NCBI RefSeq assembly: GCF_009931435.1
Contig: NZ_CP043414.1
Source: Escherichia coli
Lineage (GTDB): Bacteria > Pseudomonadota > Gammaproteobacteria > Enterobacterales > Enterobacteriaceae
Length of the DNA: 64,000 nt
Reading direction: 5' to 3' (one strand)
The first letter of the stretch is position 1, and each line of letters starts with the position of its first letter. The notes under the pieces were generated by a model. That model was not told the DNA's origin, searched no databases, and saw only the letters and a program-made list of their open reading frames with translations. This document shows, one piece after another, positions 1,083 through 53,247 of this stretch. Position numbers and translations under genes: made by a program.

Positions 1083-3608
<2,526 letters not shown>

Positions 3609-3616
<8 letters not shown>

Positions 3617-4364
3617 CCGTGACTTTATGCGTTATAGCCGCCAAATCCTGCTCGACGATATCGCTCTTGACGGGCAGCAAAAACTGCTCGACAGCCAGGT
3701 GCTGATTATTGGTCTTGGCGGGCTGGGTACACCTGCTGCGCTATACCTGGCGGGGGCTGGTGTCGGGACGCTGGTACTGGCAGATGACGACGATGTGCAT
3801 TTAAGCAATCTGCAACGACAAATCCTCTTTACCACTGAAGATATCGATCGCCCGAAATCGCAGGTCAGCCAACAGCGACTGACACAGTTGAATCCCGACA
3901 TTCAACTGACAACATTACAACAACGGTTAACGGGTAAGGCGTTAAAAGATGCGGTAGCACGGGCCGATGTGGTGCTCGACTGTACCGACAACATGGCGAC
4001 TCGCCAGGAGATTAATGCCGCCTGCGTAGCACTTAACACACCGCTTATCACCGCCAGCGCGGTCGGATTTGGTGGTCAGTTGATGGTGCTGACACCGCCC
4101 TGGGAACAGGGGTGTTACCGCTGCCTGTGGCCGGATAACCAGGAGCCTAAACGCAACTGCCGCACGGCAGGCGTGGTTGGCCCGGTGGTCGGGGTCATGG
4201 GCACGTTACAGGCACTGGAAGCAATTAAGCTATTGAGTGGTATAGAGACCCCTGCGGGATATCTTCGACTGTTTGACGGTAAATTAAACCAATGGCGCAA
4301 CCTGGCGTTGCGCCGCGCCAGCGGTTGCCCGGTATGCGGAGGAAGCAATGCAGATCCTGTTTAA
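3609..4364 (+). CDS. thiF: Sulfur-carrier protein adenylyltransferase ThiF
   Basis: Internal ATG of track ORF 3516..4364 gives [27 protein letters not shown]... (251 aa) with the GLGGLG nucleotide-binding motif; start chosen by homology. Confidence 0.93.
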
Positions 4365-4548
4365 CGATCAACCGATGCAGTGCGTCGCCGGGCTAACTGT
4401 TCACGATCTGCTCGTGCAACTCAATCAACAACAAGCGGGCGCGGCGCTGGCGATTAACCAGCAAATCATCCCGCGAGAGCAGTGGGCGCAACATATCGTG
4501 CAGGATGGCGACCAGATCCTGCTTTTTCAGGTTATTGCAGGGGGTTGA
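4348..4548 (+). CDS. thiS: Sulfur carrier protein ThiS
   Basis: 66 aa [25 protein letters not shown]... ending in the characteristic C-terminal GG. Confidence 0.93.
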
Positions 4549-4549
4549 G

Positions 4550-5320
4550 ATGTTACGTATTGCGGACAAAACGTTTGATTCACATCTGTTTACCGGCACC
4601 GGGAAATTCGCCTCTTCACAATTGATGGTGGAGGCGATCCGCGCTTCCGGCAGCCAACTGGTGACGCTGGCGATGAAACGCGTCGACTTGCGCCAGCACA
4701 ACGATGCTATCCTCGAACCGCTTATCGCGGCGGGTGTGACCCTGCTGCCGAATACTTCCGGGGCGAAAACAGCGGAAGAAGCCATTTTCGCCGCCCATCT
4801 GGCACGTGAAGCATTAGGCACAAACTGGCTAAAATTAGAGATTCACCCTGACGCCCGCTGGCTGTTGCCCGATCCCATCGAAACCCTGAAAGCCGCCGAA
4901 ACACTGGTACAACAGGGATTTGTCGTGCTGCCTTACTGCGGTGCCGATCCGGTGTTGTGCAAACGTCTGGAAGAAGTCGGCTGTGCAGCGGTGATGCCGC
5001 TCGGCGCGCCGATTGGCTCGAATCAGGGACTGGAAACCCGCGCCATGCTGGAGATTATTATCCAGCAAGCCACGGTTCCGGTGGTCGTTGATGCTGGCAT
5101 TGGCGTTCCCAGCCATGCCGCGCAGGCGCTTGAAATGGGAGCCGATGCGGTGTTAGTGAATACGGCGATTGCCGTCGCGGACGATCCCGTCAACATGGCG
5201 AAGGCATTTCGTCTGGCGGTAGACGCCGGCCTGCTGGCACGTCAGTCCGGGCCGGGCAGTCGCAGTCATTTTGCTCATGCCACTAGCCCGCTGACCGGAT
5301 TTCTGGAGGCATCGGCATGA
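4550..5320 (+). CDS. thiG: Thiazole synthase ThiG
   Basis: [20 protein letters not shown]... (256 aa), using the internal ATG of track ORF 4505..5320 directly after the thiS stop. Confidence 0.94.
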
Positions 5321-6450
5321 AAACCTTCAGTGATCGCTGGCGACAACTGGACTGGGACGACATCCGCCTGCGAATCAACAGCAAAACGGCAGCTGACGTA
5401 GAGCGGGCGCTCAATGTTTCGCAACTCACTCGCGACGATATGATGGCATTGCTATCACCTGCCGCCGGTGAATACCTGGAACCACTGGCTCAACGGGCGC
5501 AGCGTCTGACCCGTCAGCGATTTGGCAACGTCGTCAGCTTCTACGTCCCGCTTTATCTTTCCAATCTTTGCGCTAACGACTGCACGTACTGCGGATTTTC
5601 CATGAGCAATCGCATCAAGCGTAAAACGCTGGATGAAGCGGATATCACCAGGGAAAGCGCCGCTATCCGGGAGATGGGCTTTGAACATCTATTGCTGGTC
5701 ACTGGTGAACATCAGGCGAAAGTGGGGATGGATTACTTTCGTCGTCATCTCCCTGTCCTGCGTGAACAGTTCTCTTCACTACAGATGGAAGTACAGCCAC
5801 TGGCGGAAGCGGAATACGCCGAGTTAAAGCAACTTGGTCTGGATGGGGTGATGGTTTATCAGGAGACATATCACGAGGCGACATACGCCCACCATCATCT
5901 GAAAGGGAAAAAACAGGACTTCTTCTGGCGGCTGGAAACGCCGGATCGGCTGGGCCGTGCGGGGATAGATAAGATAGGCCTCGGCGCGCTAATCGGCCTT
6001 TCCGACAGCTGGCGCGTTGACTGCTATATGGTTGCCGAACATTTGCTATGGCTGCAACAACATTACTGGCAAAGCCGTTACTCTGTCTCCTTCCCGCGCC
6101 TGCGCCCGTGTACTGGCGGGATTGAGCCAGCGTCGATTATGGATGAACGCCAGTTAGTGCAAACTATCTGCGCCTTCCGCCTACTTGCGCCGGAGATTGA
6201 ACTGTCACTCTCCACGCGGGAATCACCGTGGTTTCGCGATCGCGTTATTCCGCTGGCGATCAATAACGTCAGCGCCTTCTCGAAAACGCAACCTGGTGGC
6301 TATGCCGACAATCATCCGGAGCTGGAGCAATTCTCACCGCACGACGATCGCAGGCCGGAAGCCGTTGCTGCTGCATTAACTGCTCAGGGTTTGCAGCCGG
6401 TATGGAAAGACTGGGACAGCTATCTGGGACGTGCCTCGCAAAGGACATGA
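5317..6450 (+). CDS. thiH: 2-iminoacetate synthase ThiH (radical SAM)
   Basis: 377 aa ORF with the radical-SAM CxxxCxxC motif ([10 protein letters not shown]); ATGA overlap with thiG. Confidence 0.95.
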
Positions 6451-6642
6451 GACAGAATGTAAGAACGTAAATTTATTCCGAGCAGCTACGGAAGATGAAA
6501 AACGCAAGGTTGTTGAAAGCGTTGCGTTTTTTTATGTTAGTACCGTCAGCAGGAATGTTGTCCAGGGCGAAAAGCTTCTTCCTCGTTTCGCCCTGCCTTT
6601 CTTAATATTTCCCATGAAGAATTTGCCCTCTGAATAACACCC

Positions 6643-6672
6643 ATAAAAAAACCCGCCGAAGCGGGTTTTTAC
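6643..6672. terminator. Bidirectional rho-independent terminator between thiH and rpoC
   Basis: AAAAAAACCCGCCGAAGCGGGTTTTT: GC-rich hairpin flanked by an A-tract and a T-tract, sited between two convergent genes. Confidence 0.8.
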
Positions 6673-6691
6673 GTTATTTGCGGATTAACGA

Positions 6692-9600
6692 TTACTCGTT
6701 ATCAGAACCGCCCAGACCTGCGTTCAGCAGTTCTGCCAGGCTGGCAGATGCGTCTTCTGCAGTCACCTGCGGTGCAGCCGGAGCTTCACCCGCAGCACGG
6801 CGACGCATACGATCCTGGTGGTACGCGTAACCGGTACCTGCCGGGATCAGACGACCTACGATAACGTTCTCTTTCAGGCCGCGCAGTTCGTCGCGTTTGC
6901 CCGCAACGGCTGCTTCGGTCAGCACGCGAGTGGTCTCCTGGAACGATGCCGCGGAGATGAAGGACTCGGTTGCCAGAGACGCTTTGGTGATACCCAGCAG
7001 ATCGCGGGAGTAAGTTGCACCCACTTTGCCGTTCGCTTCCAGTTCGCGGTTTGCGATCTTGACGCGAGAGTATTCAACCTGTTCGCCTTCCAGGAAGTCG
7101 GAGCTGCCCGCGTTAACGATGGTAGCTTTACGCAGCATCTGACGAACGATAACTTCGATGTGTTTATCGTTAATCTTAACGCCCTGCAGACGGTATACGT
7201 CCTGTACTTCGTTAACGATGTAACGAGTCACAGCATGAACACCACGCAGACGCAGAATGTCATGCGGCGCTTCCGGACCGTCGGAAATTACGTCACCACG
7301 TTCTACACGTTCACCTTCGAACACGTTGAGCTGACGCCATTTCGGAATCATCTCTTCGTACGGCTCGCTACCGTCTACCGGGGTGATAACCAGACGACGT
7401 TTACCTTTGGTTTCTTTACCGAAGGAAACCACACCGCTGATTTCAGCCAGGATTGCCGGCTCTTTCGGACGACGTGCTTCGAACAGGTCCGCAACGCGTG
7501 GCAGACCACCGGTGATGTCCTTGGTACCGCCAGATTCTTGCGGAATACGCGCCAGGGTGTCACCAGAGCTGATCTGTACGCCATCTTCCAGCTGAACAAT
7601 CGCTTTACCCGGCAGGAAGTACTGCGCAGGCATGTCGGTACCCGGGATCAGAACGTCGTTACCCTGAGCATCAACGATTTTCAGTGCCGGACGCAGATCT
7701 TTACCACCTGCGGTACGTTCTGCGGAATCCAGAACCACCAGCGAAGACAGACCGGTCAATTCGTCGGTCTGACGAGTAATGGTCTGGCCGTCGATCATGT
7801 CAGTAAAGCGTACAAAACCGCTTACTTCGGTGATAACCGGCATGGTGTGCGGGTCCCAGTTTGCAACGGTCTCGCCGCCAGCAACCTGTTCGCCATCGCC
7901 TTTCGCCAGTACTGCACCGTAAGGCACTTTATAGCTTTCTTTGGTACGACCGAATTCGTCGATCAATTTCAGTTCGGTGTTACGGGAAGTGATAACCAGT
8001 TTGCCGCTGGAGTTCACAACCGACTTCACGTTGCTGAGCTTGATGCTACCTTTGTTTTTCACCTGGATGCTGGATTCAGCAGCCGCACGAGATGCCGCAC
8101 CACCGATGTGGAACGTACGCATGGTCAGCTGTGTACCCGGTTCACCGATGGACTGTGCCGCGATAACACCGATTGCTTCACCTTTGTTGATGATGTGGCC
8201 ACGTGCCAGGTCACGACCGTAGCAGTGCGCACATACACCAAAGTCGGTGTCACAAGATACAACAGAACGTACTTTAACCGCGTCGACAGAGTTCTCTTCC
8301 AGCAGGTCACACCACTGTTCGTGCAGCAGCGTGTTGCGCGGAACCAGGATATCAGCAGTACCCGGTTTAAGAACGTCTTCAGCAGTTACACGACCCAGTA
8401 CGCGATCGCGCAGCGGCTCTTTAACATCACCACCCTCGATAACCGGCGTCATCATGATACCTTCATGGGTACCACAATCGTCTTCGGTTACCACCAGGTC
8501 CTGCGCAACGTCAACCAGACGACGAGTCAGGTAACCGGAGTTCGCCGTCTTCAGTGCGGTATCCGCCAGACCTTTACGAGCACCGTGGGTTGAGATGAAG
8601 TACTGGAGTACGTTCAGACCTTCACGGAAGTTCGCGGTGATTGGCGTTTCGATGATGGAGCCATCCGGCTTCGCCATCAGACCACGCATACCCGCCAGCT
8701 GACGAATCTGTGCCGCAGAACCACGCGCACCGGAGTCGGCCATCATGTAGATGCTGTTGAAGGAAACCTGCTTCTCTTCCTGACCGTCACGGTTAATAAC
8801 GGTTTCAGTTTGCAGGTTATCCATCATCGCTTTGGATACACGATCGTTCGCCGCAGCCCAGATATCGATAACTTTGTTGTAGCGTTCGCCCGCAGTTACC
8901 AGACCAGACTGGAACTGCTCCTGAATCTCAGCAACTTCAGCTTCTGCCTCGGAGATGATTTCGTGTTTCTTCTCCGGGATGACCATGTCATCGATACCAA
9001 CAGATGCACCAGAACGCGCTGCATATGCAAAGCCGGTGTACATGATCTGGTCCGCAAAAATAACGGTCGGTTTCAGACCGAGAATGCGGTAGCAGGTGTT
9101 CAGCATTTTGGAGATTGCTTTCTTACCCAGCGCCTGGTTGACGATGGAGTAAGGCAGACCTTTCGGTACAATCATCCACAGAATGGCACGGCCAACGGTC
9201 GTATCTTTCAGGCTGGTTTTCGCTACTAATTCACCGTTAGCATCTTTTTCATACTCGGTGATACGCACTTTAACGCGCGCATGCAGAGAAGCCAGACCAG
9301 AGCGATACAGACGTTCTGCTTCTTTCGGGCCAGTCAGTACCATGCCTTCGCCTTTGGCGTTAACACAGTCACGGGTCATGTAGTACAGACCCAATACAAC
9401 GTCCTGAGACGGAACGATGATTGGTTCGCCGTTCGCCGGGGACAGGATGTTGTTGGTAGACATCATCAGCGCACGCGCTTCCAGCTGGGCTTCCAGTGTC
9501 AGCGGTACGTGAACAGCCATCTGGTCACCATCGAAGTCGGCGTTATATGCCGCACAAACCAGCGGGTGCAGCTGGATAGCTTTACCTTCGATCAGTACCG

Positions 9601-10915
9601 GTTCAAATGCCTGGATACCCAGACGGTGCAGAGTCGGTGCACGGTTCAGCAGTACCGGGTGTTCGCGGATAACTTCGTCCAGGATATCCCAAACGACAGC
9701 TTCTTCGCGCTCAACCATTTTCTTCGCAGCTTTAATGGTGGTAGCAAGACCACGCAGTTCCAGCTTGCCGTAGATGAACGGTTTGAACAGTTCCAGTGCC
9801 ATTTTCTTCGGCAGACCGCACTGATGCAGACGCAGGTATGGACCTACGGTGATTACAGAACGACCGGAGTAGTCAACACGCTTACCGAGCAGGTTCTGAC
9901 GGAAACGACCCTGTTTACCTTTGATCATGTCGGCCAAAGATTTCAGAGGACGCTTGTTAGAACCGGTGATCGCACGACCGCGACGACCGTTATCCAACAG
10001 GGCGTCTACCGCTTCCTGCAGCATACGTTTTTCATTACGTACGATGATGTCCGGCGCAGCCAGATCCAGCAGACGTTTCAGACGGTTGTTACGGTTAATG
10101 ACGCGACGATACAGATCGTTCAGGTCAGAAGTCGCGAAACGACCACCATCCAGCGGAACCAGCGGACGCAGATCTGGCGGCAGTACCGGCAGAACGGTCA
10201 GGATCATCCACTCTGGTTTGTTACCAGACTGAACGAACGCTTCCAGCAGTTTGATACGCTTGGTCAGCTTCTTACGCTTAGTTTCGGAGTTGGTTTCGTT
10301 CAGCTCTTCACGCAGCTGTTCGCACTCTTGCTCCAGATCCATGCTCTTCAGCAGAGCCTGGATTGCTTCCGCACCCATTTTCGCGTCGAATTCGTCACCG
10401 AACTCTTCCAGCGCGTCCAGATACTGCTCTTCAGTCAGGATCTGCTGACGCTCCAGGTTGGTCATACCGCCTTCGATAACCACATAGGATTCGAAGTACA
10501 GTACGCGTTCGATATCGCGCAGCGGCATATCGAGCAGCAGGCCGATACGGGACGGCAGCGATTTCAGGAACCAGATGTGCGCGGTCGGGGAAGCCAGTTC
10601 GATGTGGCCCATACGCTCACGGCGTACTTTAGTCTGGGTCACTTCAACGCCGCACTTCTCACAGATGACGCCACGGTGTTTCAGGCGCTTGTACTTACCG
10701 CACAGGCACTCGTAATCTTTTACCGGCCCAAAGATACGGGCGCAGAAAAGGCCGTCACGTTCTGGTTTGAACGTACGGTAGTTGATGGTTTCCGGCTTTT
10801 TAACTTCACCGAAAGACCATGAACGGATCATGTCTGGCGAAGCCAGAGCAATTTTGATCGCATCAAACTCTTCGGTTTTAGTCTGCGCTTTCAGAAACTT
10901 TAATAAATCTTTCAC
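6692..10915 (-). CDS. rpoC: RNA polymerase beta-prime subunit
   Basis: 1407 aa [36 protein letters not shown]... with NADFDGDQM catalytic motif. Confidence 0.99.
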
Positions 10916-49975: not shown

Positions 49976-50024
49976 CCCTCTTAGCATGGCCTGGCGTTTT
50001 GCCAAGCCATAAATCGCCTAAGAC

Positions 50025-51398
50025 TTACTCCAACCGCGCCTGCGCAAAAGCAATCGCCTGCGCCACCTGCTGCGGTGAGACGCCGCCTTTTGCCGCACGC
50101 TTGTCGAGGCACGATTGCAGCGACAGAATCGGATAGACATCTTCGCCAATCACCTGACTGAATTTCTGCAACTCACTGAGCGGCAGATCTTCCAGCGGTT
50201 TGCCCTGACGAATGGCTTCCACCACCGCTTCACCAACAATATGGTGCGCCTCGCGGAACGGCACACCTTTCGCCACCAGGTAATCCGCCAGTTCAGTGGC
50301 GTTCGCATACCCCTGCTGCGCCGCTTCCTGGCAACGTGGGCGTTTCACCTGAATGCCGTCCAGCACCAGCGCCGCCATATGCAGGCAGTCCAGCCAGGTA
50401 TCGAGCGCGTCGAATAAGCCCTCTTTGTCTTCCTGCATATCTTTGTTGTAAGCCAGCGGCAAACCTTTCAGCGTCATCATCATGCCAGTCAACGCGCCCT
50501 GAACACGACCGCATTTACCCCGAATCAGCTCCAGCGCATCCGGGTTTTTCTTCTGCGGCATTAATGATGAACCGGAAGTCACGCGATCAGAAAGCTCCAC
50601 AAAACCCGCTTCGCCGGTGTTAAAGAAAATCAGATCTTCGGCAAAACGCGACAAATGCACCATACCGATAGCGGCGGCAGAAAGCAGTTCCAGCACGTGG
50701 TCGCGGTCAGAAACGCTGTCGAGACTGTTACGGGTCGCCGAGGCAAAGCCCAGCCAGCCTGCTAACTGTTCACGGTCGATTTCATAAGCCGTTCCCGCCA
50801 GTGCGCCACAGCCTAACGGGCTGACATCCAGACGCTTAAGCGCATCCTGCAAACGACTTTCATCACGCGCCAGCATCTCAACATAGGCCAGGCACCAGTG
50901 CGCGAACGTCACCGGCTGGGCGCGTTGCAGGTGAGTGTAACCAGGCATTACCGCGTCCTGATTATTCTGCGCGGTCTCGACCAGAGCGGATTGTAACTGT
51001 CGGTTAGCCGTCAGTAACTCGCTAACGGTATCTTTGCACCACAGTTTCAGGTCAGTCGCTACCTGATCATTACGGCTACGCCCGGTGTGCAGTTTTTTGC
51101 CTAACTGGCCCACTTTGTCGATCAGTTTGCCTTCTACCCAGCTATGGATATCTTCAGCGTCGCTTTCAAGAATTTGTTGTGGTCTGGCGCGAACATCTTC
51201 CAGCAGCACATTGAGCGCCTCTTCCAGTTGCACCTGTTCTTCTGCGGTTAACACGCCTACCGTTACCAGCGCTTTGGACCAGGCCACAGAGCCAACAATA
51301 TCCTGCTCCGCCAGACGGTAATCAAAGCGCAGTGAGTCGTTGAATTGTTTAAACCGTTGATCTGCTGCCTGGGTAAAACGCCCGCCCCAAAGTGCCAT
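50025..51398 (-). CDS. argH: Argininosuccinate lyase
   Basis: 457 aa [45 protein letters not shown]... Confidence 0.97.
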
Positions 51399-51458
51399 AA
51401 CTCTGTTTCCTTATTTTGAAATTCAATGCCAGAAAGCTACGTCTCCGGCCAACAAAAC

Positions 51459-52235
51459 TTAAGCTAAAATCCGCGTACCCATCGGCATACCGTTAAACAG
51501 TGCCGGAAGCTGTTCCGCATGACGCCAGGAAGCGATATCTACCGGGCGGCCCAGCGTGCGCGCAGCATCCAGCGCCGCGTTCACTTTCACTATCATGCCG
51601 TCAGTAATAATGCCCTGCTCAATCAGTTGTTCTGCTTTCGCGGCGGTCATTTCGGCAATACGTTGCCCTTTGCCGTCGAGAATACCGCTGACATCAGAGA
51701 GCAAAATCAGATCTGCGCCCAGCGTTGCCGCCAGCGCCGTCGCCGCCTGGTCGGCATTGACGTTCATCAGTTGCCCTTCGTCTGTTACGCCAATGGAGCT
51801 GACCACCGGCAGATAACCGTTCTCCAGCAATGTGTTGATAAGCTTAGGCGAACCTGGCTGCGCCAGTCCAACATGGCCTAACTCTTCATCGAGCTGGGTC
51901 ACTTTTACGCTGTCGCCGTCACCAAGAAACAGGCCTACGCCAGCAATCTGATGTTTCTTCGCCCACGCCAGCAAGGTTTTATTTGCCGTTCCCGCCAGCG
52001 CCCCGGTGATAATGTCTATCTGATCCGCAGGCGTCACCCGCAGGCCATTTTTCTTTTTCACCGGCAGATTCAGCCCTTTCATTAGTTCATCCACCACGCA
52101 GCCGCCGCCGTGAACAATCACCAGCGGACGCTGATGTGACTCACGATAATTCACCAGTGCGCTAAACAGACGTTCCAGCGCCTCTTCGCTATCCAACAGT
52201 ACGCCGCCCAGTTTGATAATTAATGGATTCATCAT
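51459..52235 (-). CDS. argB: Acetylglutamate kinase
   Basis: Track ORF 51459..52313; homologous start [45 protein letters not shown] (258 aa). Confidence 0.95.
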
Positions 52236-52242
52236 TGCACCC

Positions 52243-53247
52243 TTAAATAAGAGACTGCGTTTCCGCATAGCCGAAACGAATATTGGCGCACTGTACCGCT
52301 TGTGCCGCCGCACCTTTCAGTAAGTTGTCTTCGGTCGCCACAATAATCAGATGCTCGCCCTGAACTGCAAACCCGATATCGCAAAACGGCAGCCCGACGA
52401 CATTTTTCAGCGCCGGAACGCCTTTGTCATACAACCGTACCAACGGTTTATGGGCATACGCCTGCTGCAACGCTTGCGCGACTTGCGCCTGGTTTACACC
52501 ATGCTTCAGGCGGCAGGTAATGGTTTCGAGAATGCCACGAGGGAAATTGCCCAGATGCGGGGTGAAAATCACGTCAGCACCGAGATGCGTGGCGATCTCC
52601 GGTTGATGGCGATGGGTAAAGACACCGTATGGTTGCAGGCTAACTTCGCAAAAGCTGTTTGAAATTGCCGCTTTACGTCCTGCACCGCTCACACCGCTGG
52701 TGGCGTTGATGACCGGCCACTGATTGAGGTCAAGGAGATCGGCGTCAATCAACGGTTTCAGCGCCAACTGCGCTGCCGTCGGATAACAGCCCGGCACCGC
52801 AATCAAGTTCGCTTCTTTTAATTTATTGCCGCACCACTCCGCCAGCCCATAAGCCGCCTGATCAAGCAGTTCCGGGTATTGATGGGTAAAGCCGTAATAT
52901 TTTTCATAGAAGGCGGCGTCATTAACGCGAAACGCGCCGGAAAGGTCGAACACCACACAGCCTGCTTCGAGAAATTGCGGCGCTAAATCGTGGCTAACTT
53001 CATGGGCGGTGGCGAGAAACACCACGTCCACCCCTGGGCTAAACTCGCTGATATCCGACATCGGCTGCAACGGCAGATCAACGACGCCTTTGAGCTGCGG
53101 ATGCAAATCGGAGATTAACTTTCCCGCATCATTGCTTTGCGCTGAGACAGTCAAAGCGGTTATGTTCATATGCGGATGGCGATTTACATAGGTCACTAGC
53201 TCTGCGCCAGCATAACCGCTGGCACCCACAATCAGCGTATTCAACAT
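52243..53247 (-). CDS. argC: N-acetyl-gamma-glutamyl-phosphate reductase
   Basis: 334 aa [54 protein letters not shown]... Confidence 0.97.

Follow-up and report, generated by a model that had tools for sequence, protein, structure and literature searches.

The closest described counterpart of the locus considered here is the thiH-sroH-yjaZ-rpoC interval of Escherichia coli K-12 (the b3989 region), in which an RNA gene, sroH, and a protein gene, yjaZ (also called htrC), are found between the last gene of the thi operon and the 3' end of rpoC. The heat-shock role formerly assigned to htrC has been retracted (PMC11551758), and sroH deletion mutants of K-12 have been reported to show an envelope-stress phenotype (PMC5389530). 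Beyond this retracted assignment and this phenotype, our literature search returned no functional study of either gene. The distribution of sroH has also been addressed: a parsimony analysis over 27 genomes, published in 2012, scored sroH as lost in B2 and D, ATCC 8739, S. flexneri, and S. sonnei 046 (PMC3318445). A second counterpart is the rpoC-thiH islet of Salmonella enterica, where the same intergenic site carries lineage-specific cargo. The thiH-proximal part of the Salmonella islet is conserved with our sequence only to approximately position 6537, whereas the cargo itself is unrelated, includes neither sroH nor yjaZ, and brings the spacer to about 2.3 kb.

We analyzed a stretch of 64,000 nucleotides of E. 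coli DNA (the window), in which thiC, E, F, S, G, and H are encoded on the plus strand (1086-6450) and rpoC and rpoB on the minus strand, as seen from the list of open reading frames (ORFs) and the sequence. An Rfam search of the window placed a TPP riboswitch ahead of thiC. The exact ThiH protein of the window is recorded publicly as 2-iminoacetate synthase ThiH, and thiH occupies the homologous position in K-12 and in E. coli 2013C-4282. According to the ORF list, thiH ends at 6450 and the 3' boundary of rpoC is at 6692, leaving a spacer of 241 bp, in good agreement with the roughly 240 bp given in an earlier note on this DNA. The spacer contains three hairpins and no conserved ORF (Table 1).

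Table 1. Coordinates of features at the thiH-rpoC site of the window and of sroH-yjaZ pairs in the compared loci.
Feature	Position	Strand	Basis or remark
thiH	5317-6450	+	377-aa ORF; last gene of thiCEFSGH; left border of the spacer
68-codon ORF, not a gene	6431-6637	+	GTG start; no Pfam match
Whole spacer, short (unoccupied) allele of the sroH-yjaZ insertion site	6451-6691	.	Alignment to K-12
Left block, common with K-12 (95.7% identity)	6451-6612	.	Directly after thiH; two hairpins inside
Probable intrinsic terminator of the thi operon, AACGCAA...TTGCGTT then U-run	6501-6533	+	Minimum-free-energy and centroid folds
32-codon ORF after the terminator	6546-6644	-	On the rpoC strand
Second conserved hairpin, CAGGGCGAAA...TTTCGCCCTG	6563-6595	+	Fold
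Short-allele-specific filler, CATGAAGAATTTGCCCTCTGAATAACA	6613-6639	.	K-12 has 947 bp instead
Right block, 100% identical to K-12, contains the rpoC terminator	6640-6691	.	Alignment, BLAST
Predicted rpoBC operon terminator hairpin	6647-6670	-	Scan (flags the plus strand) and fold
rpoC	6692-10915	-	1,407-aa ORF; right border of the spacer; rpoC annotation in matching genomes
sroH-yjaZ pairs (locus coordinates)	K-12 L001 2299-3000; L125 6001-6702; L128 6001-6718; L144-L150; L154 2229-3013; L155 3492-4193		

When the spacer was aligned with the 1,161-bp spacer of K-12, only the two ends were found to be common: the first 162 bp (95.7% identity) and the 52 bp adjoining rpoC (100%). The interior measures 947 bp in K-12, whereas the window, with the same flanking genes, has 24-27 unrelated bases; the range reflects that the first 3 bases of this filler possibly still belong to the left block, as judged from comparison with strains W and K-12. 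The 947 bp specific to K-12 hold sroH (Rfam RF00372, 201 bits) and yjaZ (NCBIfam NF007263, 430 bits) in convergent orientation, the end of sroH lying two bases from the stop codon of yjaZ. The GC content of this segment is 0.415, compared with 0.55 in thiH and rpoC. The earlier note had considered only yjaZ, and the segment missing from the window includes sroH besides yjaZ.

No trace of either gene was detected in the window. A tblastn search of the 64 kb with K-12 YjaZ gave nothing better than E = 1.0, for a match inside rpoB, and no ORF of the yjaZ family (NF007263 / PF27200) is present between thiH and rpoC, the spacer being too short for one. For sroH, no match to RF00372 reached the gathering score anywhere in the window, and none was obtained even at E<=1 in the locus of 2013C-4282, a sequence that matches the window exactly over 5900-7000. 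We also built our own covariance model of sroH from nine homologues, with which true copies score 111-154 bits; its only match in the window, at 6533-6669, scored 15 bits and stops on the hairpin of the rpoC terminator. When the K-12 spacer was compared with the window by BLAST, the two flanks alone were recovered, with no remnant of the insert at the junction, and the filler has no significant similarity to the K-12 insert (best local score of 11, reached by 37 of 300 shuffled sequences). The earlier note had left open whether yjaZ is absent or disrupted in this strain. Judged from these searches, absence holds and disruption does not, and the same applies to sroH; the pair was most likely never present at the window site.

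The spacer would act as a buffer for convergent transcription between the thi and rpoBC operons. Transcripts of thi would end at the hairpin 6501-6528, which is followed by a run of seven U residues; this element is terminator-like by folding, is absent from the list produced by a simple scan, and is conserved into Salmonella, and we consider it the probable thi-operon terminator. The second hairpin (6563-6595), the inverted repeat of which is also found in K-12 (repeat I16), faces the same way. The rpoBC transcript, running in the opposite direction, would stop at 6647-6670, where the hairpin is preceded by an A-run and followed by a T-run, leaving a U7 tail on the rpoC strand and a U5 tail on the thiH strand. 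A G+C-rich stem-loop leading directly into a U-run was found at 6647-6670 on both strands and at 6501-6533 on the plus strand. The bidirectional terminator named in the earlier note corresponds to the hairpin at 6647-6670, which appears terminator-like on the plus strand by the scan and on the minus strand by folding. These predicted functions draw on the sequence and on established knowledge of intrinsic terminators. The stretch with this hairpin aligns at about 85% in one further enterobacterial contig (L135). Its stem is a common pattern: among 120 matched genome stretches almost all are unrelated, with one Enterobacter locus carrying rpoC. Matches to rsmX and the Trp leader at the rpoC terminator were far below the Rfam gathering scores and were regarded as chance matches around terminator-like hairpins; those to the rnk leader and hammerhead II in the K-12 insert were likewise far below and were treated as chance.

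Both alleles are widespread in E. coli. The flanks were found in 5,420 of 5,426 complete genomes, with matches either uninterrupted or split with yjaZ annotated between the two parts. The 947-bp insert is present in 3,741 of the 5,426 (69%) and nearly complete in 3,717, so that about 31% lack it. The presence or absence of sroH-yjaZ is therefore an ordinary strain difference, and the patchy distribution of sroH was already evident in the published analysis (PMC3318445). E. coli JJ1887 and 81EVA (241 bp) and W (240 bp) have the short allele too, with the filler seen in the window. JJ1887 is an ST131 strain of phylogroup B2. Outgroups were collected through ThiH protein clusters and exact-protein look-ups, the E. 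fergusonii and E. albertii ThiH falling within the same 90% cluster; their species labels are the names attached to the ThiH proteins and not whole-genome identifications. Contigs labelled E. fergusonii have a 241-bp spacer 100% identical to that of the window, and contigs labelled E. albertii, which are 92-93.5% identical to the others in thiH and 96-97% in rpoC, have a 241-bp spacer of the same architecture with a diverged filler (CGTGAAATTTCGACTCTCTGAATAACA). All these short spacers share the length of 240-241 bp, the three hairpins, and the filler, and they differ by a few point changes, with several positions of the filler changed in the E. albertii-labelled contigs. As to the occupied allele, the insert of O157:H7 (F8798, locus 1286-1729) has lost about 60-70 bp from within the 3' part of yjaZ, so that a 147-aa 'HtrC' product is left and the gene is decaying in this lineage. 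E. coli ET650 carries IS1 within the sroH-yjaZ segment (NZ_CP100936.1 4227018-4228741).

The same site is occupied by unrelated cargo, without yjaZ, in Salmonella, Klebsiella, and one further enterobacterial contig. In Salmonella, an SseK/NleB-family effector gene and small ORFs lie between thiH and rpoC (L136/L137 7135-9478), and the corresponding interval of the enterobacterial contig contains a cold-shock-domain gene together with PTS IIB/IIA genes (L135 5459-7679). In Klebsiella michiganensis (L138 5135-7800), the genes after thiH comprise a GGDEF gene, PTS genes, and one of the DcuA/DcuB family; the stretch retrieved stops short of rpoC. The DNA 3' of thiH is a hotspot for lineage-specific cargo.

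Relatives of YjaZ were found by tblastn on 559 plasmid records, and none in phage records. The closest YjaZ outside E. coli (78% identity) is encoded on an 88-kb plasmid-like E. fergusonii contig, together with a HigB-like toxin gene and genes of the RdgC and RecA-dependent-nuclease types, and a relative with 63% identity is located among transposases and resolvases on large resistance plasmids. sroH lies beside yjaZ on both the E. fergusonii contig and the resistance plasmids (144 and 112 bits, respectively). The pair is also present on a 7.6-kb ColE1-type Klebsiella plasmid (NZ_CP137439.1), and sroH adjoins the yjaZ-family gene in seven of nine loci of the viral collection IMG/VR, down to a protein identity of 47%. 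sroH is usually convergent with the yjaZ-family gene. The order differs on a Vibrio plasmid with a YjaZ relative of 36% identity, where sroH (66.7 bits) is upstream and co-directional with a terminator between the two. Since the linkage survives this change of orientation, a purely antisense relation between sroH and yjaZ is disfavoured. Klebsiella plasmids commonly carry a more distant yjaZ-like gene (29% identity), and on the Klebsiella IncR plasmid pKPS13 this gene is accompanied by a convergent weak match to the sroH model (L153 3047-3217; 15 bits, E 0.005), which might be a diverged RNA partner or chance. The plasmid collection also contains a 4.8-Mb E. coli record with the chromosomal yjaZ (NZ_OL790696.1), presumably a misfiled chromosome, which slightly inflates the plasmid counts of near-identical yjaZ.

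How should the short spacer be understood? The earlier note placed a yjaZ of roughly 180 codons between rpoC and thiH in K-12 but allowed that this placement might be mistaken, yjaZ lying elsewhere or overlapping thiH and the K-12 spacer being equally short. In the locus of an MG1655 derivative, thiH ends at position 2051, yjaZ (179 aa) occupies 2461-3000, and the end of rpoC is at 3213, placing yjaZ wholly inside a spacer of 1,161 bp, against 241 bp in the window, and free of any overlap with thiH. The placement was therefore correct, and an error on this point is practically out of the question. Could a small protein encoded in the spacer take the place of yjaZ instead? Both frames mentioned in the note exist: the plus-strand frame of 68 codons, which the note described as having no supporting features, and the frame on the rpoC strand past the terminator, said to stop after about 30 codons, which has 32. 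Neither matches any Pfam family, and both cross terminator hairpins. The GTG start of the 68-codon frame (6431-6433) is a substitution specific to the window, with GCG, GCC, or GGG in the other seven sequences compared, and it has no counterpart even in the otherwise identical spacer region of the E. fergusonii-labelled contigs. Moreover, both frames are interrupted in strain W, where 1 bp is deleted. Neither of the two is a gene, and a substitute for yjaZ in the spacer is very improbable.

The weightier question is which of the two forms is ancestral. The two alleles, their exact junctions and frequencies, and the same gene pair on plasmids are direct observations; the polarity, insertion rather than deletion, we infer from them. 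An ancestor of E. coli or of the whole genus might have had sroH-yjaZ at this site, with the window lineage deleting it secondarily. PMC3318445 indeed places sroH among losses rather than gains, and the insert is dispensable and eroding, as seen from the decay of yjaZ to a 147-aa product in O157:H7 and from the IS1 in one strain. Such a loss must be set against the single filler common to all short alleles and dissimilar to the insert, on account of which the short alleles are one allele by descent and not the products of repeated deletions. It must also be set against the occurrence of the short allele, in diverged form, in the E. albertii-labelled contigs; since the filler has diverged so far between contigs labelled as different species, the short allele appears to be old. 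In addition, the sroH-yjaZ pair was found at this site in no other genus examined. The low GC content of 0.415 and the homologues outside E. coli chromosomes, located on plasmids and IMG/VR contigs with sroH adjoining, argue for a foreign origin of the insert. Secondary loss is accordingly unlikely. It is very likely that the thiH-rpoC site of Escherichia was originally unoccupied, with the 241-bp spacer as its ancestral form, and that the insert was gained by a subset of E. coli. In that subset, which includes K-12, a low-GC segment of 947 bp would have taken the place of 24-27 bp immediately upstream of the rpoC terminator. With it would have come sroH, encoding a structured small RNA, and, in convergent orientation, yjaZ, both with upstream regions of their own; the window lineage would never have received this segment. 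Going beyond the earlier note, the short form is then likely ancestral and common to other Escherichia species, not a peculiarity of the window strain. At the junctions of the K-12 insert, our search found no target-site duplication, att sites, or recombinase footprint. One direct repeat (D8, AAATTCCGTAA / AAATTCCTTAA) was considered as a target-site duplication and rejected; it has 11 nt with a mismatch, its right copy is situated 34-44 bp within the insert, and it is probably due to chance.

The short allele has also moved between strains. 81EVA has the short allele together with ThiH and RpoC bearing the same accession numbers as those of K-12, from which it follows that either allele can move by recombination; the short allele has spread partly in this way, and the distribution of the alleles by itself therefore gives no polarity. 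The window and the E. fergusonii-labelled contig must be counted as one witness because they are about 98% identical over 9 kb. Identity between these two swings from 94% to 100% across 400-bp blocks, and the window thiH is 93% identical to that of K-12 and 99% to that of the E. fergusonii-labelled contig. Over the stretch of about 7.1 kb retrieved from the draft contig GCA_002965045.1, which reaches from part of thiC to part of rpoC, identity to the window is 100%. E. coli 2013C-4282, identical over 5900-7000, has only 97.4% identity over thiC-thiG, a region (1086-5300) for which the best identity found was 98.6%. From this mosaic pattern of identity, Escherichia lineages appear to have recombined in the neighbourhood of the thi operon. 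The divergence is apparent elsewhere in the window as well: argH-argB-argC (50000-53000) reaches only 90-95% identity with 5,397 of 5,425 complete E. coli genomes, and 97.4% in the best case. By these comparisons the DNA of the window appears divergent from standard E. coli; exact matches to its proteins are labelled E. coli or 'MULTISPECIES Escherichia'.

What the inserted pair might do can be approached from the conservation of its two members. The homologues of SroH align as a single structured unit, about 155 positions long and containing six helices; 96.9% of the cells are paired, and in 23 of 32 pairs both partners have changed. Covariation scores 0.49, compared with at most 0.13 with slid partners, the alignment having been fitted to the model and thus somewhat favouring the structure. 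The unpaired motifs GAUGCAGCAGAC, CCGGUAA, and UCUGAAU are invariant. One conserved arrangement (CUGAAUA, a stem, CGAAAC) resembles a hammerhead ribozyme. The hammerhead core motif is CUGANGA; its G is missing from SroH, and no hammerhead model matches this stretch, and the resemblance was dismissed. An imperfect inverted repeat (I1) considered for antisense pairing between sroH and the upstream region of yjaZ was likewise rejected because it confers similarity, not complementarity, on the two RNAs. As for YjaZ, searches of a local copy of Pfam, PADLOC, PHROGs, and PDB sequences returned no match, and a model of the YjaZ-family protein bears a weak resemblance to RelE/HigB toxins. The invariant residues of YjaZ include H52, C53, K138, R141, and H143.

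The conserved linkage of SroH and YjaZ on mobile elements suggests an RNA-protein module. Among known systems, type III toxin-antitoxin systems of the ToxIN type offer a likeness, since they too combine, on plasmids, a gene for a small protein with a closely linked gene for a non-coding RNA, and the Vibrio plasmid even shows the order of RNA, terminator, and protein gene, all co-directional. However, the antitoxin RNA of type III systems consists of tandem repeats processed by the toxin, whereas SroH is one structured unit, and a search of the K-12 sroH region found no internal repeats. It is conceivable, and we put it forward only tentatively, that the 947 bp constitute a self-contained mobile RNA-protein module, for which the window keeps the unoccupied landing site, and that the module could be a new type of RNA-antitoxin/toxin or plasmid-maintenance pair with a RelE-like fold in the protein. 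YjaZ as a toxin with SroH as its RNA partner is offered as a hypothesis, not as a finding.

For the window itself, the absence of sroH-yjaZ has little consequence, as its spacer is a normal intergenic one and the strain difference is common and previously noted. The comparison also carries a caution for annotation, namely that K-12 is not the default state at the thiH-rpoC site. The pairing of SroH and YjaZ provides a concrete handle on two K-12 genes that are listed without function. Finally, the short spacer also occurs in contigs bearing the names of other Escherichia species, and the published 'loss' of sroH might accordingly be better read as a gain.
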